Below are positions 9,595 to 33,561 of a DNA stretch of 64,000 nucleotides, one piece after another. Origin of the DNA: an uncultured Planctomycetota bacterium (GTDB taxonomy: Bacteria; Planctomycetota; Planctomycetia; Gemmatales; Gemmataceae); contig CAWIEZ010000001.1 of assembly GCA_963835245.1 (NCBI GenBank), positions 156,543-220,542 of the forward strand, in the 5' to 3' direction. How positions within the stretch are numbered: position 1 is the stretch's first letter; every line of letters begins with the position of its first letter. The position numbers and the translations under genes were made by a program. The notes under the pieces are model-generated. The model was not told the origin of the DNA and did no database searches. It was given only the letters and a program-made list of their open reading frames with translations.

Positions 9595-9695
9595 GATTTT
9601 TCTCTACCTTACAGAGAGGAAGTTCTGTCGAACCCAATGTAGACCATCTTCCGATGGCTGCCAAGAGACAAACCGCGAGCGTGTTTCCTCGAATC

Positions 9696-14490: not shown

Positions 14491-14967
14491 TCACGACACC
14501 GAGGGAAGCGGGAGAAAGATTATCGGCGTTCCCTCTTTGATGACCTTCAAGAAGACCGTATCGATCTTACCCTCGCCATATCCATAGAGAACCGGCCGTT
14601 CCTTTTTCAGTAGTTCAGGGAGCCTCTTCTTATCGAGAGGTTTACCATCGCTGCCGATCAGCTTGATTTCCTTGGCATCGTAGGTTTGATCTTCCCAACC
14701 TTCGACTGTCTCGTAAAAAGTGTGTTTTTCTTCAACTTCCTTACCATCTCGAATGATGCGCGTTGCCGTCAGCGAGACATAGCGACTTGTCCAGATTTTG
14801 AGAACGAGTTGACCTTTCTTATTCAGCCGTGCCATCGCCGCCGAAAGATTCCATGATTCTGATAAGACGGGAAACGGTGGAGGCGGTTTGGGAGCAGACG
14901 GCGTATCGGCGCACAGTCCCGTCGCCACGATGGCTCCAAGAATCGCCACGAATAGCATGCGTTTCAT
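14491..14967 (-). CDS. hypothetical secreted protein
   Basis: Start MKRMLFVAILGAIVATGLCADTPSAP (signal). ~158 aa. No domain hit. The 20-bp repeat array lies directly upstream. Confidence 0.5.
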   Translation of the reverse strand: MKRMLFVAILGAIVATGLCADTPSAPKPPPPFPVLSESWNLSAAMARLNKKGQLVLKIWTSRYVSLTATRIIRDGKEVEEKHTFYETVEGWEDQTYDAKEIKLIGSDGKPLDKKRLPELLKKERPVLYGYGEGKIDTVFLKVIKEGTPIIFLPLPSVS

Positions 14968-15016
14968 GTCAGATGCTCCTTTCAGGGGCTTTGCAATAGA
15001 ACTGCCAAAATGACAG

Positions 15017-15092
15017 GCGTTCTCTTGCAGGCCAGTTCGTTTTCTTTCAACTGAATGGGTTCTCTTGCAGATGAACGGGTTTTCTTGCAAGC
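15017..15092. repeat. array A: 4 direct repeats of core TTCTCTTGCA(G/A) at exact 20-bp spacing
   Basis: Cores at 15020, 15040 (degenerate TTTCTTTCAA), 15060, 15080. 27-53 bp upstream of the minus-strand gene start at 14967. Confidence 0.85.
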
Positions 15093-15113
15093 CGCCATCG
15101 GGCAACAGTTTAG

Positions 15114-15440
15114 CTAAGGATTGGCGTTGCCAGCGTGAGGATTCGCCCCTCCCTGCTGTGGAGGCAGAGCTTGCTTCGCAATAATTACGCCCGTAACCAC
15201 TGTCCCGGCTGGCAAAGAGATTTGAGCGCCCCCGTCATTAAAGACGTATGCGTGGGCAAGGGTGATCGTAAGATGAGCGCCAATGGGCAAGTTAGCCGCA
15301 ACGTCATCAACCAGCACTGGACGACTTCCCCCGACCCAGATGTCCAAGGCAATGTTGTAGCGAAACACGGTTTGTTCCCCCTCGCCTAGCTCTAGCCAGC
15401 CAACCCTCGTGGTGGATTGTAGGGGAAAGCTGCGGGACAT
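15114..15440 (-). CDS. hypothetical protein
   Basis: 108-aa ORF in the island. Coding-like but no domain. Confidence 0.35.
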   Translation of the reverse strand: MSRSFPLQSTTRVGWLELGEGEQTVFRYNIALDIWVGGSRPVLVDDVAANLPIGAHLTITLAHAYVFNDGGAQISLPAGTVVTGVIIAKQALPPQQGGANPHAGNANP

Positions 15441-15463
15441 CCCAGCAACGGCTCAGTGGATGC

Positions 15464-15754
15464 TCACCGCCCCGAAAGACGAATCTTGTGCCCGCCTTTG
15501 GTGGTAAACTCCTCGGCGTTTGGCGGCTCGTAGGTCAAGATGGCCTCTCTTGCCAGCATTGCGGCATCTCGAACGCGATCCACGGCCCGGTCCCTATCCA
15601 CGGACCACGGCACGTTCTCAATTACCACCTTGGCGAACGCCTTCGCCGCTTCGTTGATAGCAGCGTATCGTTCTGCGTCCTCTGGCCGAGGGAACTTGCT
15701 GGCAAAATCGCGGTCCAGTTGCTCGATGCGTGTTTCATCAACAGATTTGAACAT
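15464..15754 (-). CDS. hypothetical protein
   Basis: 96 aa. AAGGAG RBS 7 nt upstream of the ATG at 15754. Confidence 0.5.
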   Translation of the reverse strand: MFKSVDETRIEQLDRDFASKFPRPEDAERYAAINEAAKAFAKVVIENVPWSVDRDRAVDRVRDAAMLAREAILTYEPPNAEEFTTKGGHKIRLSGR

Positions 15755-15771
15755 ACTGCTCCTTAAAAAAA

Positions 15772-15796
15772 GAAACGGGCCGGTTAAGGCCCGTTT
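15772..15796 (-). terminator. rho-independent terminator-like hairpin (AAACGGGCC-GGTTAA-GGCCCGTTT) with 7-U tract on the minus strand
   Basis: Palindrome followed (minus orientation) by the TTTTTTT run at 15762-15770. Downstream of the transposase/small-protein operon. Confidence 0.55.
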
Positions 15797-15826
15797 TAAG
15801 AGAGTGTCGTTGGCGATTTTTTGTGA

Positions 15827-16093
15827 CTACTTCACGCGCACGACTACAACCTCTTCGCCGCACCACGGACAGAACCGTATCTCGGTGAGGCCCAAAATGC
15901 AGTTGCCACTCCTCTGCATGTGGTGCGACGTGAAGATGTTCACTTCCCTGCTGGTGGTGCGCCGGTGGCCTTTGACGCCGAAGCCGACAAGGATGTCCCA
16001 CTCGTCCTGCATCTCTCGACAGCAAAAGTGGACAGCGATTTGCTCGTAGACAGTCTCGTAGCGACCACAACCAGATCGGTATGTAACGCGCAT
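15827..16093 (-). CDS. small Cys-rich (zinc-ribbon-like) protein co-transcribed downstream of the SWIM-DDE transposase
   Basis: 88 aa (…HFCCREMQ…CPWCGEE…). GAGGAG RBS overlaps the transposase stop. Start is 12 nt after the transposase stop. Confidence 0.45.
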   Translation of the reverse strand: MRVTYRSGCGRYETVYEQIAVHFCCREMQDEWDILVGFGVKGHRRTTSREVNIFTSHHMQRSGNCILGLTEIRFCPWCGEEVVVVRVK

Positions 16094-16104
16094 GGTGCTA
16101 CTCC

Positions 16105-17379
16105 TCAGTTCAAGAGGGCAGGGACGGCTGGCTTCTCCGCAGGCCAGAACACCGGCTCGACGCCTAACTCGATCTGCGATTGGTGGATGACACAGATGTT
16201 GTGGCAGAGGAACTTGCACAGCACTTCGTTTTTCATCGCCACGTCCGTCCTGCTCCGCACATGGTCGCGGAACTTCGCCTTCACCATGCTGAACGTACTC
16301 TCCGCATTGCTGCGCTGATGGTAATGACTCAGGAAGTCCTCGCGGTGAAGCTGGTAGTACAGGTACATTTTCTCCCACAGGCTTCCTGCCTCACCGGGTT
16401 GGCTGTTGCACTTGAAGGGAATGAAGGCCGTGCCGCCAAGACGCTGCACCAGTTCAAGGTTGTCGTGGCTGAGGTAGCCCTTGTCGGCGGGCACTTCCTT
16501 GACCGTGAAGTTCTTGGCCGTGGTTTTCACGAGGTCTTCAAAGAGCGGACAGTCGTTCGCGTCCCGGTCCAAAATCTCAACCGACGTGACGATGTTCGTC
16601 TTGACGCCGCAGATGGCATGAGCCTTCACCCAATCATGCCCGCTCCGCGTTGTGCCGTACTTCTCGTCGAACCACCGCACGAAGCGGCTGGTGGAGAAGC
16701 CGGTGCTGTCGGGGGCGAAGACGGTTTCGACGGCCCGGAGCGGCAGACTGCTCTGGACGATGAGTTGCTTGAGAAGCGGCGTCATCGGCTCGTATTCGAG
16801 ATAGGCACACACGCTGACGCTGTGCATCTTGTGGGAGAGGTAGCCTTTGGCGTAGGCATGTTTCAGGTCGGTGTCGAAGCGTCGGCTGGAAAAGGTCGTG
16901 TAGACCTTGAGGGCTGAGGCGAACACCATGTCCGACATCTCGGTGCGTTTCCGACCCGTCTTGGGCTGCGGGGCGGGAGGCACGGTGCGGCACAGGTCGA
17001 ACAGGAGCGCTTGAAAGCGGTCCTTCTCGGTCATCTGGGCTTCGTTGTACTTCGGCCAGTCCTGCTTGTAGGTCTTCTTCTCGGTGAACGTGATCGAGCG
17101 GGTTTCCGTCACCGTGCCGTCTGGGTTTTGTTCGCGGCGAATGGTGATTTCGACGGCGTACAGGTGCTTGCACTTGTGACCTTCTTCCTTGTGGTCAGGA
17201 CAGGTGCAGGTACAGTGGGTCGGGTCTACTTCGTACTTTTTGTCGTTCTTGGACTGCGACGGCACGAGCCAGATGCCATCATCGCGGCGCTGAAGCTTGC
17301 AGAGCGCGGCGATGATGATGCCGCGCTCCTCGCGTAGCTTGGCAGACGTGGGCTTGGGGGTGGTGGTTTGAGCGGTCAT
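16105..17379 (-). CDS. IS4/IS5-superfamily DDE transposase with N-terminal SWIM zinc finger (copy 1, intact)
   Basis: SWIM CxCxnCxH (CTCTCPDHKEEGHKCKHLYAV). DDE_Tnp_1 signatures ADKGYLSH and HQRSNAESTFSMVKAKF (R..E..F..K). 424 aa. Confidence 0.8.
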   Translation of the reverse strand: MTAQTTTPKPTSAKLREERGIIIAALCKLQRRDDGIWLVPSQSKNDKKYEVDPTHCTCTCPDHKEEGHKCKHLYAVEITIRREQNPDGTVTETRSITFTEKKTYKQDWPKYNEAQMTEKDRFQALLFDLCRTVPPAPQPKTGRKRTEMSDMVFASALKVYTTFSSRRFDTDLKHAYAKGYLSHKMHSVSVCAYLEYEPMTPLLKQLIVQSSLPLRAVETVFAPDSTGFSTSRFVRWFDEKYGTTRSGHDWVKAHAICGVKTNIVTSVEILDRDANDCPLFEDLVKTTAKNFTVKEVPADKGYLSHDNLELVQRLGGTAFIPFKCNSQPGEAGSLWEKMYLYYQLHREDFLSHYHQRSNAESTFSMVKAKFRDHVRSRTDVAMKNEVLCKFLCHNICVIHQSQIELGVEPVFWPAEKPAVPALLN

Positions 17380-17515
17380 AGCGAAAAATCCCTTTCCGGT
17401 TCACGGCGGGATGCGCTATAATGCTCTTGAGCAGAACGCATTCGGGCGCGACCCGCCTGAGTGTGTCTTGGCCCGCGCTTCTGTTACCAGCAGAGGCGCG
17501 GGCTTTTCTTTCTGC

Positions 17516-17526
17516 CTACATTGTAG
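17516..17526. promoter_or_regulatory. candidate RHH operator palindrome CTACATTGTAG in the transposase/RHH divergent promoter region
   Basis: The same CTACA-N-TGTAG palindrome recurs in the copy-2 divergent region (23030-23040). Related half-sites at 17591-17600 and 22947-22956. Confidence 0.35.
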
Positions 17527-17604
17527 TAAACATCTGTCCACGAATCAATAGCGGTAGACATTTTTTGTTTGACTTTTTGCTACTTTTTGTCTACACTGAG
17601 CGTC

Positions 17605-17814
17605 ATGGTACGACGAAGGAAAGACCCGAAACTCAGGATGGCAAAAGACCTTCGCATCCCCGTTACGGATGAGTTGAAGCGGTTGATTGAGGAAGCAACC
17701 AGCGATGAACCGGAAGGGATGGCGGCTTGGGCGAGGGGTGTTTTACGGGAAGCCGCTCAGAGGAAGGTGTCAGGCCGCGAGCGACCACAGGAGCCGCCCG
17801 ACGAGAAGGCGTAA
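17605..17814 (+). CDS. ribbon-helix-helix (Arc/CopG-like) small DNA-binding protein, divergent from transposase copy 1
   Basis: LRIPVTDELKRLIEEA...WARGVL aligns with LRIRLTEEERAMLDQVA...WARSEL of the 22748..22942 protein. Both sit divergent to a SWIM-DDE transposase. Confidence 0.5.
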   Translation: MVRRRKDPKLRMAKDLRIPVTDELKRLIEEATSDEPEGMAAWARGVLREAAQRKVSGRERPQEPPDEKA

Positions 17815-17875
17815 GCAACTTCGGCTGCGGTCCTTGCGGTCGTGGCAGCGGGCGTGTATGCTGTTGAGCTAGACG

Positions 17876-20128
17876 GTGGCGGTCGGGACAGTCCTCACCG
17901 AGCCGTCTGAGTCGCTTTTCGAGAGGGGCCGAGCGATGGCCCAACGCGAAAGTCCCACTCAGTTCGAGCTTGAGGCAGGCGCTCAAGTTCCCCACACACC
18001 CTATTGGCTCGTTCAGAGCATTGGCAAGGGATACTTCGGGGAAGTCTGGAAGGCCGTCCATCCGACGAGGGGCGAATTATACGCCCTCAAGTTCTGCAAG
18101 AGACGAGAGGCTCTCCCCTCGTTTCGTAACGAGGTACGGCATCTCGACCGGATCAAGAAGGCGGGCACTTTCGAGGGTTTCGTCGTCCTCAAAGAAATCT
18201 TTGACGAAGAGACCCGCGAGTTGCCCTTCGTCGCCTACGAGTACATTGAGGGCGTGGACTTTGGGAAGCTCCTCGAAAAGCGCTTTGCCGAGAGTGGGCG
18301 GTTCACCCCGTTTGAGGCAGCGGAAGTGATCTACGAACTGGCGAGCATCATGGCTCGCATCCACACCCTCAAAGACCCCATCGTCCACCGCGACCTCAAA
18401 CCATCGAATATCCTCCTTCTCAACGACCGACCGCCGTGGCGGTTCAAGATCGCGGACTTCGGACTGGGCGTCTTGGCGGTGGATGAGGCTCGCGCCGAAG
18501 AACTCACTCTGACCGACATCGGGCGCTGGATGCCGGGGGCCGGTACTCTTTTGTATATGTCCTACGAGCAGCGCTACCCTGAGCATGTGGGCGATCTTGG
18601 AAATCCATCCGATGACGTTCATGCGCTCGGAGTGATCTGGTACGAACTACTAACCAAAGGGCTGCACCAAACCTGTCTCCCGTGGACGTGCGCAATCGGA
18701 GAAAAGCCTCGTCTCAAGTGGCCTTTTTGGCCTCCGAGCCTAAGTCCCAAGACCTTCCCTTGGAAACGTCTTCGGAAAATGTTGCTCAAGCGCGGCATGA
18801 CGGAGCCAGAAGCAGACTTGCTTGAGTCCTGCCTGAAACGTCGTCCGCATCGGCCAGAACATGCCGGGGTGCTGGCGGCAAAAATCCGTGAGCTATACCC
18901 GCCACTCCGAGAAGAGGCACGCAAGGACGCTGCCGAACTGGAACGACAACGGCGAACTGGATGTGACTGGCTAGGATGCCTTTATCGGGTTGCCAAGAAG
19001 CAATTGGATACATGGAGCCAAGGTGCAAACCACTCCATCCCAGAAGCACACTGGCTCAAAGGTTTGTGCTTCCAGCATGGCATCGGCATGTACGCCGATC
19101 TCGACAAGGCGCGGGAGTGCTTTAGGTGGGCCTCCATCGCCGAATATCCTAATGCTCGGTGTGACTTGGCACTGCTGGACGCTGAGGATCAACGCGAACA
19201 AGCACTGGAACTTCTCAAGAAGGCTGCGGACCAAGGCCATGCGGAAGCTGCCTTTCGGCTCGCCAAGCTATTGTCAGAAGGCAGAGCGATTGACGTGCTT
19301 CCTTTCGTGCCTTCGGGCGACCCGGATGCTATTGCTGCATTGGTGACATGGAACGGCGAAGACGAAACAGGCACAGACTGTTGGGCAGGGGATCAGCAAC
19401 TCCTCGCACGTTACATTCTCCATTTATGCGACGGAGGAGAAGCACCAGAGCTTCCTATTGGCGTCCAATATGATGAGTTTGAGCGCCCGCCAAACGTGGA
19501 TATATTCGTTCTTGGCTATTCTTCGTGTGGAGTGCCACCCATCCGACTCTTGCTCGATTGTCCCATTGGCGAACTGCTCAATCTGTCGCCAGAAGTCAAT
19601 CATCATCTCGTAGAAGTATTTGGTCGTATGTCAGAAGAAGAGATGAAAGTGCTTCCGCCAAGACTGAAAGACATCTTGTCGCTCACAGAGAAAGAGTATT
19701 CTCTTAAAGGGGGAGCCGAATGCACATTTGCGGCGATGCGAGCGATGCTGGCTCAGTTGTGGTGTGATCCGTGGCTCATTGCGCAGCAGAAGACGAGAGA
19801 GTTCGTTGAGAAGGCTGCAAGCCTTGGATGCGCCAAGGCTCAGTTATGGCTTGCCAAGGTGTGCGATGAACAGGAAAGACCAGTAGAGGCCGAGAAATGG
19901 CTTCGCCTTGTGGCTCGACGTGAGAATTGGGAGGGGACGTGGCAGGGGCAGTTGCAACTCGCCAAACAGTTATTCGCTTTTTTCAAAACCCACGAGAAAA
20001 CAGATGGAGCCAAATGGTGTTTAGACGAGGCTTTTTCATGGTGCGCGCGTGCCAAGACTATCGCAGACGAAGTTGCTTGGATTAGGAGTGGCGGCGATGA
20101 ATTACTCGACAGAATATGGGCAAGTTAG
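17876..20128 (+). CDS. Ser/Thr protein kinase (Hanks-type) fused to C-terminal Sel1/TPR-like repeats
   Basis: Kinase subdomains GKGYFGEV…ALK, HRDLKPSNILL, DFG. C-terminal Sel1-like units (AHWLKGLCFQHGIGMYADLDKARECFRWA; DQGHAEAAFRLAKLL). The start may be the Met at 17936. Confidence 0.8.
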   Translation: MAVGTVLTEPSESLFERGRAMAQRESPTQFELEAGAQVPHTPYWLVQSIGKGYFGEVWKAVHPTRGELYALKFCKRREALPSFRNEVRHLDRIKKAGTFEGFVVLKEIFDEETRELPFVAYEYIEGVDFGKLLEKRFAESGRFTPFEAAEVIYELASIMARIHTLKDPIVHRDLKPSNILLLNDRPPWRFKIADFGLGVLAVDEARAEELTLTDIGRWMPGAGTLLYMSYEQRYPEHVGDLGNPSDDVHALGVIWYELLTKGLHQTCLPWTCAIGEKPRLKWPFWPPSLSPKTFPWKRLRKMLLKRGMTEPEADLLESCLKRRPHRPEHAGVLAAKIRELYPPLREEARKDAAELERQRRTGCDWLGCLYRVAKKQLDTWSQGANHSIPEAHWLKGLCFQHGIGMYADLDKARECFRWASIAEYPNARCDLALLDAEDQREQALELLKKAADQGHAEAAFRLAKLLSEGRAIDVLPFVPSGDPDAIAALVTWNGEDETGTDCWAGDQQLLARYILHLCDGGEAPELPIGVQYDEFERPPNVDIFVLGYSSCGVPPIRLLLDCPIGELLNLSPEVNHHLVEVFGRMSEEEMKVLPPRLKDILSLTEKEYSLKGGAECTFAAMRAMLAQLWCDPWLIAQQKTREFVEKAASLGCAKAQLWLAKVCDEQERPVEAEKWLRLVARRENWEGTWQGQLQLAKQLFAFFKTHEKTDGAKWCLDEAFSWCARAKTIADEVAWIRSGGDELLDRIWAS

Positions 20129-20520
20129 TTCATCGGCGGCGGTAGCTGACTCTGTGACGGGAAGTGCTGTGACAGATTACCCTGCTCCAAACGCTGTTTC
20201 TTGTTGGCGAGGTATTTGTAAACGGGCTGAAAGGCGTTCATTGCTTGACTTGACAACTTTTCCAGTTCTTCCGCGTTCACTTGTTCATCATCAAGCCAAG
20301 CATTTTCAAGCACTCCGTCCAAGTAGGAGAGTTTCTTGTACGTTTCAACCGCCCATTTCAGCGCTTCATCGAGGTTACGCCGGTCTGCTTCTTGTTCCAA
20401 GCGTGCTATATTCTCGCGCGATTGGTTGAATTGTGGCTGTGGCGGTTGCTCCCCCGGCAAGCGGTTCAATGCTTCACGAATGTTCTTTCGGCCCTTCTGC
20501 CAATCTTTGAAATAGCCCAT
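20125..20520 (-). CDS. hypothetical protein
   Basis: 132 aa starting MGYFKDWQKGRKNIREALNR. Coding-like. The ORF-track N-terminal extension overlaps the opposite-strand gene and is not credited. Confidence 0.45.
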   Translation of the reverse strand: MGYFKDWQKGRKNIREALNRLPGEQPPQPQFNQSRENIARLEQEADRRNLDEALKWAVETYKKLSYLDGVLENAWLDDEQVNAEELEKLSSQAMNAFQPVYKYLANKKQRLEQGNLSQHFPSQSQLPPPMN

Positions 20521-20613
20521 AATGCTCCCCAATGACTTTGCAGATATATAGAGCAAGACAGGGTTTTTTTTTGATGAAAGCGCATTTGACCAACCGCCAA
20601 GAGGCCGAGCGCC

Positions 20614-21063
20614 TTGTCCAGCAACAGGGCTTCGGCATCCTCGCGCCAACTCTACCAGCACATCGCGGACTCCAATGCCACCGAATGCACCTTCCACTTG
20701 ATGCCGCTGCCCGCCAAGCAAGTCGAACTGATCGTCAGCGACAACGACTCCCACCGCTTCACGGACCTGAACCACGTCCAAGCGGTCTTCAATGAATTAC
20801 TCATGTTGGCCTACTGCCAGAAGGCCAAACTCGCCACAACGAAGGGCACGGTCGTCTTCACGGAGCAGGGCATGGAAACGGCGCGCCTGCGGACGAACAT
20901 GGGCGCGGAGTTCTGGGCCACACTGGAAGGTGATGCCGAGCGCTACCGGCAGTTGGTGCAGGAGCTAGAGCGGGTGGTGGTGAGGCCGGGCTTACGGTTG
21001 GTTGTCCTTGTCCAAGAAGACGGGACGAGGATCGTCCGTGACGAAGAGGCCAAGGCACAATGA
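20614..21063 (+). CDS. hypothetical protein (possibly starts ~20563 with a frameshift near 20620)
   Basis: 149-aa ORF. The upstream in-frame-shifted segment MKAHLTNRQEAERLVQQQGFGI looks coding. Stop overlaps the next gene (ATGA). Confidence 0.4.
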   Translation: MSSNRASASSRQLYQHIADSNATECTFHLMPLPAKQVELIVSDNDSHRFTDLNHVQAVFNELLMLAYCQKAKLATTKGTVVFTEQGMETARLRTNMGAEFWATLEGDAERYRQLVQELERVVVRPGLRLVVLVQEDGTRIVRDEEAKAQ

Positions 21064-21413
21064 CCTACCCCGTTTACTTCTTGCGCCTCGGCGATGAACT
21101 ACGGGTCGTCTCCTCCCAAAAGGACATCGGCCACACCGACTTCTGGGAACAGACCGTCTCGCACATCGTCGCCAAGCACTACGGTATCCCGCAGCCGAAG
21201 CTGGCGAACCTGCCCTACTGCCAGCGAAGAGGCCGCGTCGTGGGGAATACGGTGTACTACGGCGAACGGTCTGCCCCTGAACTGCTGTGCCTGCTCCGCG
21301 AGGCGGTGGGCAACGATGAACTGGTGTTCTGCCATGACGAACACGAGAAGCGGCTTCGGGAGGACGTGCGGCAGTTCAGGCGGCTGGTGCGCCGAGCAAG
21401 GCAGTCAAGCTAA
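21060..21413 (+). CDS. hypothetical protein
   Basis: 117 aa, translationally coupled to the upstream ORF. No domain recognised. Confidence 0.45.
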   Translation: MTYPVYFLRLGDELRVVSSQKDIGHTDFWEQTVSHIVAKHYGIPQPKLANLPYCQRRGRVVGNTVYYGERSAPELLCLLREAVGNDELVFCHDEHEKRLREDVRQFRRLVRRARQSS

Positions 21414-21634
21414 GGGCTTGCGCTTTTTCTTGGGGCGGGGTACTATATTCAAGTAGAGGCTTGCCGGTTATGCGAACGAGGCTGTAAAAGTGGGACACCC
21501 CCAAGCTCAAGCCGCCCCCGTTGCTATCTATCCCTGCTTAGGGGATTATCGGACATGGGACGGCACGCAATGGTCAGCAAGGGGCGTGTCCTGCCCTCCA
21601 TTGTATCGCATCCGAGTGAGCGGAAAAGCATAAA

Positions 21635-21665
21635 CGCCACGGCTCATCACCGTGGCGTTTCTGAC
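21635..21665 (+). terminator. terminator-like hairpin CGCCACGG-ctcatcac-CCGTGGCG + TTTCT
   Basis: Read from the sequence. Lies downstream of the 21060..21413 gene, immediately before array B. Confidence 0.4.
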
Positions 21666-21757
21666 GTTCTCTTGCAAATTGACGAGTTCTCTTGCAGGTT
21701 CAGGAATTCTGTTGCAACCTGACGGGTTGCCTTGCAAAATGGTCTTCTATTGCAAAG
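21663..21757. repeat. array B: 5 direct repeats (TTCTCTTGCAA / TTCTCTTGCAG / TTCTGTTGCAA / TTGCCTTGCAA / TTCTATTGCAA) at a 20-bp period
   Basis: Cores at 21668, 21688, 21708, 21728, 21745. Same orientation as array A. Confidence 0.9.
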
Positions 21758-21810
21758 CCCCTTTCAGGGAGAAACGGTGAGCGATTCGGATAATTCCTTG
21801 ATAATATCCC

Positions 21811-22004
21811 GATAAGAGCGGCGTTGCAAGGAAACGCCATTCTGCAATAGAACTCTCCCACTTGCAAGAAAACTCCCTCGCCAACCTTATCTACCTGAAC
21901 AGGCGCGCACATCTTAAATAATTCTTCCATTTCTTGCAACCAGTTCTATTGACACCCCAAGAACACTTCTTACAATCAAGAAACAGGAAGAAATGTTCTT
22001 GGGG
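21811..22004. repeat. array B2: further TTGCAAG-type copies in both orientations, the 12-mer CGATAAGAGCGG, and a CCCCAAGAACA…TGTTCTTGGGG hairpin
   Basis: gcgttgcaaggaaacgc (itself a palindrome), cacttgcaagaaaactcc, atttcttgcaacc. The exact 12-mer cgataagagcgg is shared with 26132-26143. Hairpin at 21955-22004. Confidence 0.7.
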
Positions 22005-22222
22005 TCGCTAACCAGTGGACAAGCAGGCCGAGTTCGAGACCATGATCCAGCGGCATCTAACCCGCGCTCACAAGCTCCGCGCGATCCAGCAAATGATCGC
22101 CGAAGACCCCGGTATTGTTCCTGACATACTGGAGATATTGACGACCTCCGCGTGCGCACCCGTCGCCTCCGCGCGCCGAGGCCCGACGCCGCGTTGATGC
22201 CAAGACACAGGCCGAGAAGGTC

Positions 22223-22504
22223 GTGGCCTTCTTCAAGGCAAACGGCAATACGATGGCCTCGGTTCGCCAAATCGCTGACGCAACGGGCCTGACGAGGAAT
22301 ACGGTGAACGCCTTGTTCTACAACAGCAGCCAGAAAGGTCTGTTCAAGTCACTCACGATAGGGAAGAAGCGGAAGTTCTGGCGGCTGAAAGAGGACGAGC
22401 AGGACATGGATAGCGAGATGTCGCTTGAGGAGCTTGCGGAGATGGGCTTCGACGAAAGCGATCTCGATGGCGGTTCGGAGGACACGGACGAGCCAGAGGA
22501 GTAG
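22223..22504 (+). CDS. small winged-helix/HTH-like protein with acidic C-terminal tail (may extend to ~22015 if a frameshift is assumed)
   Basis: SVRQIADATGLTRNTVNALF… HTH-like segment, KKRKFWRL, then a D/E-rich tail. First gene downstream of the repeat arrays. Confidence 0.45.
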   Translation: MAFFKANGNTMASVRQIADATGLTRNTVNALFYNSSQKGLFKSLTIGKKRKFWRLKEDEQDMDSEMSLEELAEMGFDESDLDGGSEDTDEPEE

Positions 22505-22747
22505 CCAGTTGAGCTACGCCATTTTGCGGTCTAAAGAAAGGAGGGCAGCAATGACAAACGAGAGTGGCCGACCGGGTGGCCCACGAACGAAGCAAGGGCG
22601 GTAGGGTAATCCACCAAGATACCCCCTACCGCCCTTGACCCCGGCACGTCAGGCTTGCAGACGGCCTTGACCACACTTGTCGAGGCCCCGGAGATGGTCT
22701 GCACTCCGGGGCCGCTCATATTGATTTTAACGATGCAAGAAACATCG

Positions 22748-22942
22748 TCAAGTCTTTTTTGAGATTTCTTCCAAAGCTTTTTTCGCCAAGGCGATTAGCT
22801 CCGACCGCGCCCAAGTGGACGTATCGAGAGTCCTCGTCTCGGCAACCTGATCCAGCATGGCCCGCTCCTCCTCCGTGAGACGGATGCGCAGGACATTCTC
22901 GCGGGCCTGAGTTTCCAGCTTCTTTTTCCGTGATCCAGCCAT
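22748..22942 (-). CDS. ribbon-helix-helix protein, divergent from transposase copy 2
   Basis: MAGSRKKKLETQARENVLRIRLTEEERAMLDQVAETRT… Homologous to the 17605..17814 protein. ATG at 22942 confirmed by reverse complement. Confidence 0.5.
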   Translation of the reverse strand: MAGSRKKKLETQARENVLRIRLTEEERAMLDQVAETRTLDTSTWARSELIALAKKALEEISKKT

Positions 22943-23029
22943 GAAACACATTGTAGCCACACGCCTACCCCGCCACAAGACCGCGACGATTGTTCTGCCT
23001 ACCAACCTTGAGTGCGCGGTCCAACGTGG

Positions 23030-23040
23030 CTACACTGTAG
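23030..23040. promoter_or_regulatory. candidate RHH operator palindrome CTACACTGTAG
   Basis: Same palindromic motif as 17516-17526. Sits between the divergent RHH and SWIM-DDE genes. Confidence 0.35.
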
Positions 23041-23079
23041 CTATAGTGAACGCGGGTATAGTTATGGCTGGGCCTTCCG

Positions 23080-23767
23080 ATGGACCTCCGAGAGTTAAAG
23101 GGCTTGGAACTGGCGGCGCGGGTGAAAATCACCTACGTCGATGGCATCTGGTACGTTCCCTCGCAATCCGGCAAAGGCAGGTACGAGGTTCGGCTGAGTC
23201 CCAACCCAGAATCCTGCACCTGCGACGACTTCCAGCTTCGCCAGAAGCCATGCAAGCACATTTACGCCGCCCGCAACGTCCGCGAGCGGGAGCATGGCGG
23301 CGAGGCCGTGGTCATCGACACGGACACATTGCCGAAAAAGAAGTCCTCCAAGCAGGACTGGCCGTTGTACAACAAGGCGCAGATGACGGAGTTCAAGCGG
23401 TTCCTCGTCCTCCTCCACGATCTCGTCCAAGGCGTTGAGGAGCCGCCACAGCCGCGCACTGGGCGGCGGCGGACGCTCATGGCCGACATGGTGTACGCTT
23501 CGGCCCTCAAAGTCTACATGACCTTTGCCAGTCGCCGCTTTGACTTCGCCTTGGATTGGGCCAAAGAGAAGGGCTACATCTCGCAAAGGAAGATGCACCC
23601 TGTTAGCGTCTGCGCCTTCCTTGAAAGCGACCTGATGACCCCGGTGCTCCAGAAGCTCATCGTCCAGAGCAGCCTGCCGCTTGTATCCATCGAGAGCATT
23701 TTCGCGCCGGACTCTAGCGGGTTCAGCACGTCGCGGTACGTCCGCTGGTACGACGAGAAGTATGGTG
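23080..23767 (+). pseudogene. SWIM-DDE transposase copy 2, truncated by IS3-family insertion
   Basis: Colinear with copy 1 (about 60 percent identity by eye) through …YVRWYDEKYG, then diverges exactly at the IS3 left terminal inverted repeat (23768). The DDE C-terminal ~180 aa is absent. Confidence 0.7.
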
Positions 23768-23831
23768 TGGACTTCCCCACGATTAGTGGACAGCCAGTTA
23801 AGGGTGTATACTCACCCTGGGAGGTCCAGCA

Positions 23832-24128
23832 ATGGCGAAAACACGACGCACCTACACCCCGGAGTTCAAGGCGGAGGCTGTCAAGCTCGTCACCGAGCAG
23901 GGCTACTCCGTTGCCGAGGCCGCACGCTCCCTCGGCATCTGCGAGAACCTCATCCGCAACTGGAAGCAAACCCTCGAAGCCCACGGGGAACACGCCTTCC
24001 CCGGTCGTGGCAAGCTCTCCCCCTTCGAGGAGGAGAACCATCGCCTCCGCGCTGAGAACAAACGTCTCTTGGCGGAGCGCGACATCCTAAAAAAAGCGGC
24101 GGCGTTCTTCGCCAGGGAGGCGACATGA
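23832..24128 (+). CDS. IS3-family transposase OrfA (HTH)
   Basis: MAKTRRTYTPEFKAEAVKLV…, leucine-zipper-like C-terminus, typical IS3 OrfA. Confidence 0.85.
   Translation: MAKTRRTYTPEFKAEAVKLVTEQGYSVAEAARSLGICENLIRNWKQTLEAHGEHAFPGRGKLSPFEEENHRLRAENKRLLAERDILKKAAAFFAREAT
24089..24096 (+). promoter_or_regulatory. A AAA AAG slippery heptamer for programmed -1 frameshift (orfA to orfB)
   Basis: ctaAAAAAAGcgg, located just before the orfA/orfB overlap. Standard IS3-family mechanism. Confidence 0.6.
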
Positions 24129-25102
24129 CCTACCGCTTCATCGACCAACACAAGGAGCAATGGCCCGTGCACTGGCTTTGTGACACTCTGGAGGTTTCCC
24201 CCGCCAGCTACTATGCCTGGCGGCGATGCCTCCGCAGCGCAGGGGAGCAACGACGCCACATCCTGCTCGTGGAGATCCGCGCCATCCATGCCCAATTCAA
24301 GGCCCGTTACGGCAGCCCGCGCATCCACGCCGAACTGGTGGCCCGCGGCCACGACTGCTGCGTCAACACCGTCGCCAAACTGATGCGGGAGGCCGGTATC
24401 GCTGCGAAAACCGCGCGGAAGTTCCGCTGTACCACCACGGACTCCGACCACGACTTGCCTGTAGCGGAGAACCTCCTGGACCGCCAGTTTGATCCCGCCG
24501 CTGCCAACGAGTCCTGGGTTGCGGACATTACCTACATCCCGACTCGTGAAGGCTGGCTGTACCTGGCCGCCGTCGAGGATCTGTACGCTCGGCGGGTCGT
24601 TGGCTGGACGATGGCCGAACACAGGGAGAGCCGGTTGGTCGTGGACGCCTTGGCGATGGCCGTGCAGCGACGATTGCCGGGCGAGGGTCTGCTGGCGCAC
24701 TCGGATCGAGGCAGCCAGTACGCCAGCGAACATTACCAACTCCTCTTGGCCAAGCATGGGATCACATGCAGCATGAGTCGTCGGGCGGACTGCTGGGACA
24801 ACGCGCCGATGGAGAGCTTTTTCGCGTCGCTGAAGAAGGAACTGGTCCACGACGCCGACTTCGCCACGCGGTTGGAGGCGCGGGCGGCAATATTCGAGTA
24901 CATCGAGGTGTTCTACAATAACCAACGCCGTCACTCCTCGTTGGGATATGTGTCCCGGCGGAGTACGAGCAATCATCTACCCCTTAACTCCGTGTCCACT
25001 TTTCGTGGGGAATTCCATCAAGTCGAACCCAATTGTTCTTGGCGAGGTCCACGTTGTACCACTTCTTCACTTCGGCTTTTGTCACCGGAGATTCTTGAGT
25101 AA
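24125..25102 (+). CDS. IS3-family transposase OrfB (integrase core, DDE)
   Basis: …WVADITYIPT…GWLYLA…SDRGSQY…NAPMESFF… The ORF has no stop inside the right terminal repeat and reads about 28 codons into flanking DNA. Confidence 0.8.
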   Translation: MTYRFIDQHKEQWPVHWLCDTLEVSPASYYAWRRCLRSAGEQRRHILLVEIRAIHAQFKARYGSPRIHAELVARGHDCCVNTVAKLMREAGIAAKTARKFRCTTTDSDHDLPVAENLLDRQFDPAAANESWVADITYIPTREGWLYLAAVEDLYARRVVGWTMAEHRESRLVVDALAMAVQRRLPGEGLLAHSDRGSQYASEHYQLLLAKHGITCSMSRRADCWDNAPMESFFASLKKELVHDADFATRLEARAAIFEYIEVFYNNQRRHSSLGYVSRRSTSNHLPLNSVSTFRGEFHQVEPNCSWRGPRCTTSSLRLLSPEILE

Positions 25103-25373
25103 GGACCGGCTCGACGGCCTTCACGGTGTCGGTCTTCGGCTGCTGGACAAGAACAGCAGTGGGTACAGGAAGTGGCGGGGCCGTTGTAATCGTTTGAGGT
25201 GTTGAGAATAAGTCCTTCACCTTGTTTGCTGGTATCCACTTCGTCAAGCCCTCGCGCCACATCATGTCGGTCGGCAGAAGTTGACCTGATTTCGCAAGCA
25301 TCCGAAGTTCGGTTGATGAAACCGGACCATGCTTGCTCTTGCCGTCTCTCGTGTAAAACCACTCTTGCGCCAT
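24984..25373 (-). CDS. DUF4339/GYF-like domain protein, 3' end replaced by the IS3 terminus
   Basis: MAQEWFYTRDGKSKHGPVSSTELRMLAKSGQLLPTDMMWREGLTKWIP. GGGAGA RBS. The last 11 codons (…GIPHEKWTRS*) are encoded by the IS3 right terminal repeat. Confidence 0.6.
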   Translation of the reverse strand: MAQEWFYTRDGKSKHGPVSSTELRMLAKSGQLLPTDMMWREGLTKWIPANKVKDLFSTPQTITTAPPLPVPTAVLVQQPKTDTVKAVEPVLTQESPVTKAEVKKWYNVDLAKNNWVRLDGIPHEKWTRS

Positions 25374-25783
25374 TGCAGTTCTCCCGGTTGGCGGGGCGCA
25401 TGAAAAAGGAGCGCCGAACACTTGGCCGCTCCAGTGGCCCCCGCCAAGGGGCGCAGACGAACAGCACAAGACCCGACGCCCCTCTTGCGAGGGGCGTGCA
25501 AGCCAAGGGCTGCTTCGTCTGGATACAAGAGCGGTTGCCCGCTCAGGTTGGCGGTTTCACTGGAAGCAGTTCTTGACGCACGCGCGTCAATCAGGTTGTC
25601 CCCGTGGCCCTCGCAACGGTCAAAGCTCGTCGTCCTCCTTCAATGCGCAAAACGGTAATCGGCTGGCACTCGCCAGCCGTCACGATGATAACCGAGCAGA
25701 GAGCACTGTTCAAGAAGCCAGCGAAAAATCGGCTACCGACACTCCTTTATGGAGTACCGAGGCATAAACTACCGGGAGATCTG

Positions 25784-26062
25784 ATGATGAAAAGCAGGTG
25801 CATCATGGAAAAGACGCTGAAAGTGCCGTTCGAGGAGATCAATCTAGTCCGCATTCGCTGCAAACAGTGCGGGGACGCTGCCATCGAGATGCCGCTCTCG
25901 GCACTGGTGAACGGGCCGTTGATGTGTCCGGGGTGCGCGAAGGATTTGCGGAAGTCGGCTGCGAACGTGGACAAAGCGGTGACAGACATAGCGAACGGTA
26001 TTGTAGCTCTGAAGGACAATCCCATGATCGAACTTCAGTTCGTGCTGCCATTCGACCAGTGA
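25784..26062 (+). CDS. small zinc-ribbon protein (CxxC…CxxC)
   Basis: IRCKQCG…LMCPGCAKDL. GGGAGA RBS before the ATGATGAAA. Confidence 0.45.
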   Translation: MMKSRCIMEKTLKVPFEEINLVRIRCKQCGDAAIEMPLSALVNGPLMCPGCAKDLRKSAANVDKAVTDIANGIVALKDNPMIELQFVLPFDQ

Positions 26063-26067
26063 GGTAG

Positions 26068-26144
26068 CTTTGCAAGAAAACTCAGCCGTATGCAAGAGAA
26101 CTCATCGTTTTTCGGACGTTTTCTTGCAACGCCGATAAGAGCGG
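26068..26144. repeat. array C: TTGCAAG-type copies (2 on bottom strand, 20 bp apart; 1 on top) plus the CGATAAGAGCGG 12-mer
   Basis: ctttgcaagaaaactc (26068), gtatgcaagagaactc (26088), cgttttcttgcaacg-ccgataagagcgg (26117-26144). Confidence 0.8.
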
Positions 26145-26197
26145 AAGAAACCACTTCAATTTGCTCCTCACCACAGGCCATTCCCACGCTTTCTTCT

Positions 26198-26314
26198 CGT
26201 TCCCAAGCTCTGCTTGGGAACGCTGGGCGAGAAGCTCCGCTTCCCGTCCCACGCAGCGGCCAGCCGCGAAGCAGAGCTTCGCAACCGTGCGTTCCCAAGC
26301 TCAGCTTGGGAACG
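26198..26314. repeat. REP-like element family F1 (three hairpins, ~120 bp): CGTTCCCAAGCTCTGCTTGGGAACG … CGTTCCCAAGCTCAGCTTGGGAACG
   Basis: Outer hairpins at 26198-26222 and 26290-26314, with a central weaker inverted repeat. The same architecture (ACGC/GCGT in place of AAGC/GCTT) is at 46584-46693. Confidence 0.85.
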
Positions 26315-33155: not shown

Positions 33156-33561
33156 AGTGACACCTGTGGCGGCAATGCCACGAAAGAGAAGGGGGCTGCA
33201 CTTCGTCTTGAGAGCGAGACGGGTGTGCCCTTTCACGTTGGCCCGAACACCGCATCCGGGTCCGCCTACGAGGTTAGCTGACGGGCTAGGATGCGAAAGT
33301 ATCCCGGTCCCCGTGGACCTTCGCCCCGAGAGGCCGGCTCTCACCAGCCTGATGGTTCCCCCGTTCGCGCATGCACCGCAGCGCGATTCGGCTGCACTGT
33401 AGAGTTATTCTAGTTCCGCGTTCACTTCTTGCAAAAGAAATCACTTTTTCCCATCTGTTCGTCCGTTCAGAGGGGACGATTCTTTCGACACGCAAGGAAT
33501 CTTCGCCACTACAATGGGATTGGTTTCCGGTGATTACTTTTCCTTACGATGCGGAGGAGAC

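Follow-up and report, generated by a model that had tools for sequence, protein, structure and literature searches.

A palindrome shared by two divergent transposase/ribbon-helix-helix promoter regions as a putative repressor operator in cargo transposons of a planctomycete

A 64,000-nucleotide stretch of DNA from an uncultured Planctomycetota bacterium of the family Gemmataceae (GenBank assembly GCA_963835245.1, contig CAWIEZ010000001.1, positions 156,543 to 220,542; hereafter the window) carries two neighbouring transposons, W1 and W2, in each of which a transposase gene and a gene for a small protein resembling ribbon-helix-helix (RHH) regulators are transcribed away from each other. An 11-nucleotide palindrome of the form CTACA-N-TGTAG is found between the two genes in both copies. 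Is this palindrome an operator through which the RHH protein keeps the transposase silent, as proposed in a preliminary description of the locus, or does it reflect no more than the way in which the two promoters are built? The comparison with related transposons described below supports the motif as a genuine cis element that selection has maintained in the two divergent promoter regions. We consider it rather probable that the palindrome serves as a repressor operator over the −10 box of the transposase promoter, with a related site over the −10 box of the RHH promoter and with the RHH protein as the binder. We infer each of the steps involved: activity of the promoters as predicted, binding by the RHH protein, and repression through that binding.

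Both 11-mers were recovered at the positions given in the preliminary description (palindromes 1 and 2 in Table 1) and are the sole exact matches to the pattern in the window. When up to one mismatch was allowed, the pattern CTACANTGTAG occurred three times against 0.17 expected, and none of 100 shuffled sequences reached three. The palindromes lie between a gene for a transposase with SWIM and DDE domains and a divergent gene for an RHH-like protein, in the order tnp1(−)/RHH1(+) in copy 1 and RHH2(−)/tnp2(+) in copy 2, again as previously described. Aligned with each other, the two intergenic regions appeared to have diverged to near randomness overall, with only islands kept: the palindrome, a TCAA belonging to the transposase −35, a GGTAGnCA, and a TGnCTACAnTG beside the RHH start. 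Palindrome 2 is part of a longer word, GTGGCTACAcTGTa, of which the inverted recurrence at the RHH2 −10 is GTGGCTACAaTGTg. The short core CTACANTG was detected 11 times in the window (1.9 expected), and six of the 11 occurrences fall in the two intergenic regions.

The promoters around the palindromes were predicted as follows. A promoter scan with a threshold of 9 matches out of 12 returned exactly two promoter-like sites in the copy 1 region, where 0.2 would be expected; both promoters of copy 2 score 8 out of 12 by hand count and were hence unlisted. Transcription would be predicted to start at ~17513 for tnp1, ~17604 for RHH1 and ~23043 for tnp2. As the palindrome covers the transposase −10 hexamer, part of the similarity consists of ordinary promoter sequence. 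The −10 of the RHH1 promoter ends so close to the ATG that the RHH1 mRNA would be leaderless or nearly so, and a TAnnnT hexamer, mostly TACAAT, is placed 6-7 nt before the ATG in nearly all of the approximately 40 RHH modules. The half-site relatives of the palindrome reported earlier beside the RHH starts, CTACACTGAG at 17591-17600 and CACATTGTAG at 22947-22956, are indeed present, but they are primarily the −10 hexamers (TACACT and TACAAT, respectively) of these leaderless promoters.

Table 1. Coordinates of the features discussed in the text (positions in the window; rc, reverse complement)
Feature	Position	Strand	Description
Transposon W1	14987-21759	−	6773 bp; carries tnp1, RHH1 and cargo; termini GGCTTTGCAATAGAAC and rc GGCTTTGCAATAGAAG, i.e. 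GGCTTTGCAATAGAA(C/G)
W1 target duplication	14978-14986 and 21760-21768		9 bp, CCTTTCAGG
tnp1	16105-17379	−	424-amino-acid transposase; N-terminal SWIM zinc finger and DDE_Tnp_1; Pfam DDE_Tnp_1 4e-20 (72.7 bits), SWIM 1e-5
Palindrome 1	17516-17526		CTACATTGTAG; over P_tnp1 −10 hexamer and bases to about −3
P_tnp1 (predicted)	17520-17548	−	TTGATT (17548-17543), 17 nt, TACAAT (17525-17520, inside palindrome); promoter scan
Central conserved element, copy 1	17553-17560	−	GGTAGACA on + strand, rc TGTCTACC; island in alignment
P_rhh1 (predicted)	17569-17597	+	TTGACT, 17 nt, TACACT; 7 nt from −10 end to ATG at 17605; promoter scan
RHH1	17605-17814	+	69-amino-acid RHH-like protein; predicted DNA-reading strand LRIPVT
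Transposon W2	21820-26133	+	4314 bp including IS3 insertion; termini GGCGTTGCAAGGAAAC and rc GGCGTTGCAAGAAAAC, i.e. GGCGTTGCAAG(G/A)AAAC
W2 target duplication	21811-21819 and 26134-26142		9 bp, GATAAGAGC
RHH2	22748-22942	−	64-amino-acid RHH-like protein; predicted DNA-reading strand LRIRLT
P_rhh2 (predicted)	22950-22978	−	TTGTGG (22978-22973), 17 nt, TACAAT (22955-22950), 7 nt, ATG; read by eye and by homology to copy 1
Central conserved element, copy 2	22999-23006	+	CTACCAAC; directly upstream of tnp2 −35
P_tnp2 (predicted)	23008-23036	+	TTGAGT (23008-23013), 17 nt, TACACT (23031-23036); read by eye and by alignment to P_tnp1
Palindrome 2	23030-23040		CTACACTGTAG; over P_tnp2 −10
tnp2	23080-23767	+	N-terminal 229 codons only; cut by IS3-family insertion; C-terminal DDE half absent from window
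IS3-family insertion sequence	23768-25017	+	orfA/orfB, 37-nt terminal inverted repeats; interrupts tnp2 at codon 230

We assembled ~170 related loci (numbered with the prefix L) from genomes, metagenomes and exact-protein look-ups, and scanned the gene upstream of the transposase at 162 loci, 160 from two collection scans plus the two copies in the window. A divergent RHH-like gene lies directly upstream of the transposase at 46 of the 162 loci, and a small zinc-ribbon gene (CxxC...CPxCKSPYWNxPR, ~50 amino acids) occupies the same divergent place at 35. Because a search for the exact motif came back nearly empty, we searched for lineage-specific equivalents, and found a separate word for each lineage, present at both of the divergent promoters. 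L161 and L162, the closest RHH1 modules outside this genome, with RHH proteins that are 82% and 88% identical, respectively, retain CTACATTGTAG unchanged, and the GTAG extension downstream of the transposase −10 is kept in W1, L161, L162 and W2. The RHH2-like group has the word GTTGCTACA, often in the arrangement TGTAGCA-N7-TGCTACA over the transposase spacer and −10. Other words are GGATATACA in L027 and L105, GTCGGTACA / GTCTGTACA in L038 and L040, ATGGCTACAAT at both −10s of L165, GTGGCTATA at both promoters of the W2-like L172, and GGCCATAnTATGGCC, twice, in L011. In L164, the transposase −10 is TATAAT, and the word TTGACTACA occurs shortly downstream and a second time at the RHH −10; thus, the word is not simply the hexamer. 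Three W2-like relatives (L012, L171 and L173) carry two pseudo-palindromes over the transposase spacer and −10 at 11 bp centre to centre, which fits what would be expected for two RHH dimers side by side. A fourth, L170, carries GTGGCTACAT-N10-ATGTAGCCAC, with 10-nt arms and a 10-nt gap, and has 17 bp where W2 has 6 bp. W1 and W2 themselves have one perfect palindrome each.

The correspondence between the two promoters of a module was then expressed in numbers. In 39 modules of the RHH type, the 9-mer located at the RHH −10 matched the transposase-proximal half of its own intergenic region at 7.6 of 9 positions, against 6.5 of 9 in cross comparisons (permutation p<5e-5). The difference persisted with one representative per word (28 elements) and with only the 5 nt upstream of the hexamer (3.54/5 self vs 2.79/5 cross, p<5e-5). 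Word similarity followed RHH identity (r=0.49, partial Mantel p<2e-4), and its correlation with the identity of the transposase N-terminus (225 residues) was r=0.03 (partial −0.07, p=0.77). The longest exact repeat of each intergenic region, compared with shuffles, gave mixed results, this statistic being too weak. This covariation of the two promoters, seen over the family as a whole, points to a lineage-specific DNA-binding factor acting on both of them.

The divergent proteins were called RHH proteins in the preliminary description, and they are supported as RHH-like by the family-model matches of RHH2 homologues and by an alignment of the RHH1 and RHH2 families. RHH1 and RHH2 are only ~21-28% identical to each other. 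RHH2 matched the NikA-like (E 0.001) and DUF6290 (E 0.0026) models of Pfam, both below the gathering scores; among 30 of its homologues, sub-threshold matches were seen to NikA-like in 27 (best 4e-6), to DUF6290 in 26 and to TacA1 in six, and JGI names several of the homologues as DUF1778 family. For RHH1, 34 homologues were found, and a Pfam search of RHH1 together with 29 homologues yielded no match. The hhalign comparison of the two families gave 97.5% probability and an E of 5e-12, with LRIPVT opposite LRIRLT and a shared WAR motif aligned. An AF2 monomer model of RHH1 (predicted local distance difference test score, pLDDT, 72) has an extended N-terminal segment followed by helices 22-31 and 36-57. 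Profile searches of both RHH families against PDB sequences returned no meaningful match. We also considered the RHH gene as one half of a toxin-antitoxin pair and rejected this, as no toxin-like gene is present in the operon after RHH, the place being taken instead by cargo or a convergent gene.

If the palindrome is an operator, the system may work as follows. Each palindrome would be the core of an operator overlapping the transposase promoter −10, within a back-to-back divergent promoter pair of an IS903-like cargo transposon, and the leaderless divergent RHH gene would encode the cognate repressor. RHH dimers would bind the CTACA/TGTAG word at the transposase −10, at two sites one helical turn apart in the W2-like relatives, and would bind the related word at the −10 of their own gene as well. 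The outcome would be low transposase expression and autoregulation of RHH, and probably also regulation of the cargo genes behind RHH.

Nevertheless, several observations weigh against this interpretation. The −10 hexamer alone accounts for 6 of the 11 positions of the palindrome, and the predicted promoters of copy 2 (P_tnp2 and P_rhh2) are below the promoter-scan threshold. The exact palindrome was found at almost none of 80 related genome loci, and perfect 5-N-5 palindromes are not enriched over 47 intergenic regions of the family (7 vs 5.5 expected), so the dyad symmetry is limited to the present lineages. CTACANTG also occurs outside the elements, at 33395-33402(−), 33509-33516(+) and 9635-9642(−), i.e., at three apparent host promoters. 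The predicted reading strand of L011 is that of RHH1 (LRIPVT), and yet its word differs (GGCCATAnTATGGCC), and the correlation of RHH identity with the word is in part the physical linkage of the word to the RHH gene. Finally, although the top matches of the RHH1 model in a Foldseek search against PDB were RHH proteins (AtaR, KacA, the RHH domain of PrpA, NikR and ParD), all had E>1 and were not significant. The earlier proposal of an autoregulatory operator is plausible and gains strength from the comparative data, in that an element is maintained at both promoters and covaries between them, and has to be corrected as to the nature of the half-sites and in that the element is partly a −10 box and its palindromic form is not general in the family. 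Likewise, the motif in its exact form is absent from most other copies of the module, but in each lineage an equivalent word takes its place, and the absence of the exact form does not in spirit contradict the proposal.

Several of these points would be explained if C-TACAnT-G were nothing but the local flavour of the sigma-70 −10 at the four promoters of the two elements, the dyad being incidental and no repressor being involved. All four CTACANTG copies concerned are −10 hexamers at the correct spacing from a −35-like hexamer or from the RHH ATG, and the lack of enrichment of 5-N-5 palindromes is in line with this explanation, as is the recurrence of the 8-mer at apparent host promoters, from which a common −10 flavour in this genome is suggested. 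On the other hand, bases beyond the hexamer change in concert at the two promoters of an element and vary from lineage to lineage; the L164 word is separate from the −10 hexamer; the GTAG extension is kept downstream of the transposase −10 in four elements; and the W2-like relatives show the 11-bp-phased tandem pseudo-palindromes and the inverted repeat with 10-nt arms. We judge promoter architecture on its own to be an unlikely explanation. As to the apparent host promoters, 33395(−) and 33509(+) form a divergent pair upstream of a gene for an Nfu-like protein and a gene for a large membrane protein, and 9635(−) is upstream of a small open reading frame (ORF).

Alternatively, the transposase itself may bind the word through its SWIM domain or N-terminal region to regulate its own gene, with the RHH protein acting elsewhere, in cargo control or as an accessory of transposition. 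Self-repression of the promoter by the transposase, or by an N-terminal fragment of it, is known from many insertion sequences (IS1 InsA and IS911 OrfA, for example), and the SWIM domain is a possible nucleic-acid binder. However, the similarity of the words is uncorrelated with the identity of the transposase N-termini, close transposase relatives (L001 and L002) differ in both regulator type and word, and the element ends bear a different repeat, TGCAAGARAAC, which is the expected site of the transposase. Autoregulation by the transposase is quite improbable on these grounds. That the resemblance reflects chance or plain shared ancestry without function is hardly credible: some identity is expected as the two regions are homologous, but the islands are kept in surroundings that are near random, an exact match at the 10 specified bases has an estimated chance of ~1e-4 in a 137-nt region, and the motif is retained in L161 and L162.

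Two further readings of the palindrome were discarded. It cannot form an RNA hairpin or terminator, as a 5-bp stem with a 1-nt loop does not fold. It is not a transposon end or an end site of the transposase either, as it lies 2.5-4 kb from the ends, which are at 14987/21759 and 21820/26133 and bear the unrelated TGCAAGARAAC.

The intergenic regions contain a third conserved element, placed centrally (Table 1). Its family pattern, CTAC[CT][GA]A[CG], was detected in 15 of the 40 intergenic regions of RHH type (0.5 expected), and W1 holds only a variant of it, CTACCGCT. The element adjoins the RHH −35, at an offset of 35-43 from the RHH ATG, in L005, L015, L022, L024, L038, L040, L045, L047 and others, and occurs regardless of the lineage-specific −10 word. 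It could be an UP-like element, a part of the transposase −35 region, or a site for another factor.

The limits of W1 and W2 were set by the terminus type together with the 9-bp duplications seen in multi-copy relatives from other genomes. The DNA that such relatives have in common extends well past the transposase gene, in blocks that start and end with GGCTTTGC, followed by lineage-specific subterminal repeats; a 9-bp target duplication was also found at L008. The termini of both elements read GGC(T/G)TTGC, of the type GGCTTTGC in W1 and GGCGTTGC in W2. Near the ends of both elements, TGCAAGARAAC is repeated at a 20-bp spacing (14987-15089, 21666-21759, 21820-21873 and 26071-26133), in direct orientation on the regulator side of the element and in inverted orientation on the transposase side, and the relatives have the same layout with other 9-11-mers (TGCACCACG, TGCTCCCTA, TGCACAACAG and others). 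These end repeats are likely the transposase sites. W1 and W2 are separated by a gap of 60 bp, their regulator-side ends facing each other. We rejected the idea that they are the arms of a composite transposon, given that two ends and a separate 9-bp target duplication belong to each.

The two transposases are 56% identical over 230 residues. More than 5000 homologues of tnp1 were found; its best NCBIfam match is the IS5 family, at 94.6 bits and under the cut-off of 140, and the closest annotated transposases, IS5 / ISPko1 (IS903 group), are 24-25% identical. As tnp2 is cut by the IS3-family insertion and its remainder is missing, W2 is non-autonomous, its ends being intact and of the same type as those of W1. 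The missing remainder and a truncated gene for a GYF-domain protein that abuts the end of the IS3 element (25018-25470, − strand) suggest an internal deletion associated with the IS3 insertion.

The cargo of W1 after RHH1 is a gene for a Ser/Thr kinase with Sel1/TPR repeats (17936-20128, + strand). In the relatives, the corresponding genes encode N6_Mtase/Eco57I restriction-modification proteins (L165/L167) or GmrSD_N and HEPN defence proteins (L168). The cargo genes trail RHH on its strand, and thus RHH may also control their expression. The zinc-ribbon type comprises L001, L004, L031, L044, L055-L080 and L095-L159, and the back-to-back TTGACA promoters of these elements repeat a word particular to this type, (A)GTATATAC. 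The transposase of L001 is 79% identical to tnp1 and yet is accompanied by the zinc-ribbon gene, whereas that of L002 is 74% identical and has a word of the RHH2 type. The regulator cassette has therefore been exchanged between close transposase relatives.

The proposed repression by an RHH protein can be compared with known systems. RHH dimers such as those of P22 Arc/Mnt (immI), MetJ (met-boxes) and pSM19035 omega (heptads) read short, partly palindromic sites via paired beta-strands; adjacent dimers are placed about one helical turn apart, and their operators overlap −10 and −35 boxes, including those of divergent promoters (Arc at Pant/Pmnt). The sites predicted here are likewise short, partly palindromic and overlapping with core promoter elements, whereas no relationship in sequence was detectable between RHH1 or RHH2 and these proteins. 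The geometry proposed here for the operator, i.e., a 5-N-5 palindrome, 11-bp-phased pseudo-palindromes in relatives and TGTAGCA-N7-TGCTACA in the RHH2-like group, was deduced from sequence alone. In the helix-turn-helix repressors IS1 InsA, IS911 OrfA and Mu Ner/c, an element-encoded DNA-binding protein lowers the activity of the transposase promoter, as is proposed here, usually by binding in or near the terminal repeats; the present site instead lies within the element, 2.5-4 kb away from the ends, and an RHH-like protein takes the place of the helix-turn-helix one. The closest demonstrated parallel is the RHH protein Arc encoded by IS605, which represses a bidirectional promoter through motifs in opposite orientation over its −35 and −10, as shown by ChIP-seq and reporters (Moon et al., bioRxiv 10.64898/2026.09.24.754181). 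In both cases, a small transposon-encoded RHH protein has its motifs on core elements of a bidirectional promoter between transposon genes, the binding being a prediction from the DNA in our case. The IS605 system comprises a Y1 TnpA and TnpB, neither of which was detected among the ORFs examined in W1 and W2; here, the transposase is of the SWIM and DDE_Tnp_1 type in an IS903-like element with cargo. Moreover, the RHH gene here stands alone on its strand with cargo genes after it and is apparently leaderless, and its product belongs to families without significant Pfam assignment.

With regard to the transposon, IS903B of the IS5 family has the inverted repeat GGCTTTGTTGAATAAATC, which starts with GGCTTTG, and generates 9-bp target duplications (PMC10569121, PMC9769513), and ISPko1 is an element of the IS903 group (PMC3281130). 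The W1/W2 family shares the DDE_Tnp_1 transposase, the GGCTTTG termini and the 9-bp duplications with this group. Nevertheless, the elements described here are 2.7-6.8 kb long with a regulator and cargo, in contrast to an element of ~1 kb with a single transposase, and they have an N-terminal SWIM extension, arrays of 11-bp subterminal repeats at 20-bp spacing and a divergent regulator gene; membership in the IS5 family is also not reached by the NCBIfam score.

Taken jointly, the observations allow a tentative and broader proposal, to which we give less credence than to the operator itself. W1 and W2 may be members of a family of IS903-like cargo transposons, widespread in Planctomycetota and Acidobacteriota and so far undescribed, which would combine a SWIM-DDE transposase with multi-repeat ends and a target duplication of 9 bp. 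Control of the transposase would lie with an exchangeable regulator cassette, RHH or the CxxC...CPxCKSPYWNxPR zinc ribbon, always divergent and apparently leaderless, whose operators at both promoters would co-evolve; the W1 lineage would add an antisense small RNA against the 5' untranslated region (UTR) of the transposase. The regulator would head the cargo genes (kinase, restriction-modification, GmrSD/HEPN) so that expression of the cargo would be tied to repression of the transposase. Whereas the mechanism belongs to a known kind, the transposon family and the exchangeable regulator cassette appear to be undescribed.

If the RHH protein does bind, the shutting of a bidirectional promoter by a transposon-encoded RHH protein would extend beyond IS605 to a DDE family abundant in soil Planctomycetota and Acidobacteriota. 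The lineages would then offer a natural series of matched proteins and operators, GTTGCTACA, GTGGCTACA, GTGGCTATA, GGATATACA, GTCGGTACA and GGCCATAnTATGGCC, and such matched variants would be useful for studies of RHH specificity and as orthogonal repressor-promoter pairs. The element boundaries also correct the annotation, in that these are cargo transposons of 3-7 kb and not simple insertion sequences.

Other features of the locus were noted. Three small ORFs, at 15827-16096(−), 15464-15754(−) and 15114-15440(−), are inside the transposon, as they lie between the tnp1 stop and the end of W1; one of them has CxxC pairs, and an intrinsic terminator is placed at ~15770-15800, after the first ORF. 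An Rfam search of 14900-26200 gave nothing at gathering score. A candidate antisense small RNA, which has no Rfam match and is absent from copy 2, was noticed on the + strand inside the tnp1 5' UTR (17417-17512), with a TATAAT at 17417-17422, a predicted start at ~17429, two hairpins and a terminator (stem 17470-17504 followed by a T-run). L161 and L164 conserve the region, which shows 2 compensatory pairs. Several G-U pairs can form on the + strand only, and the RNA would be complementary to the transposase leader.

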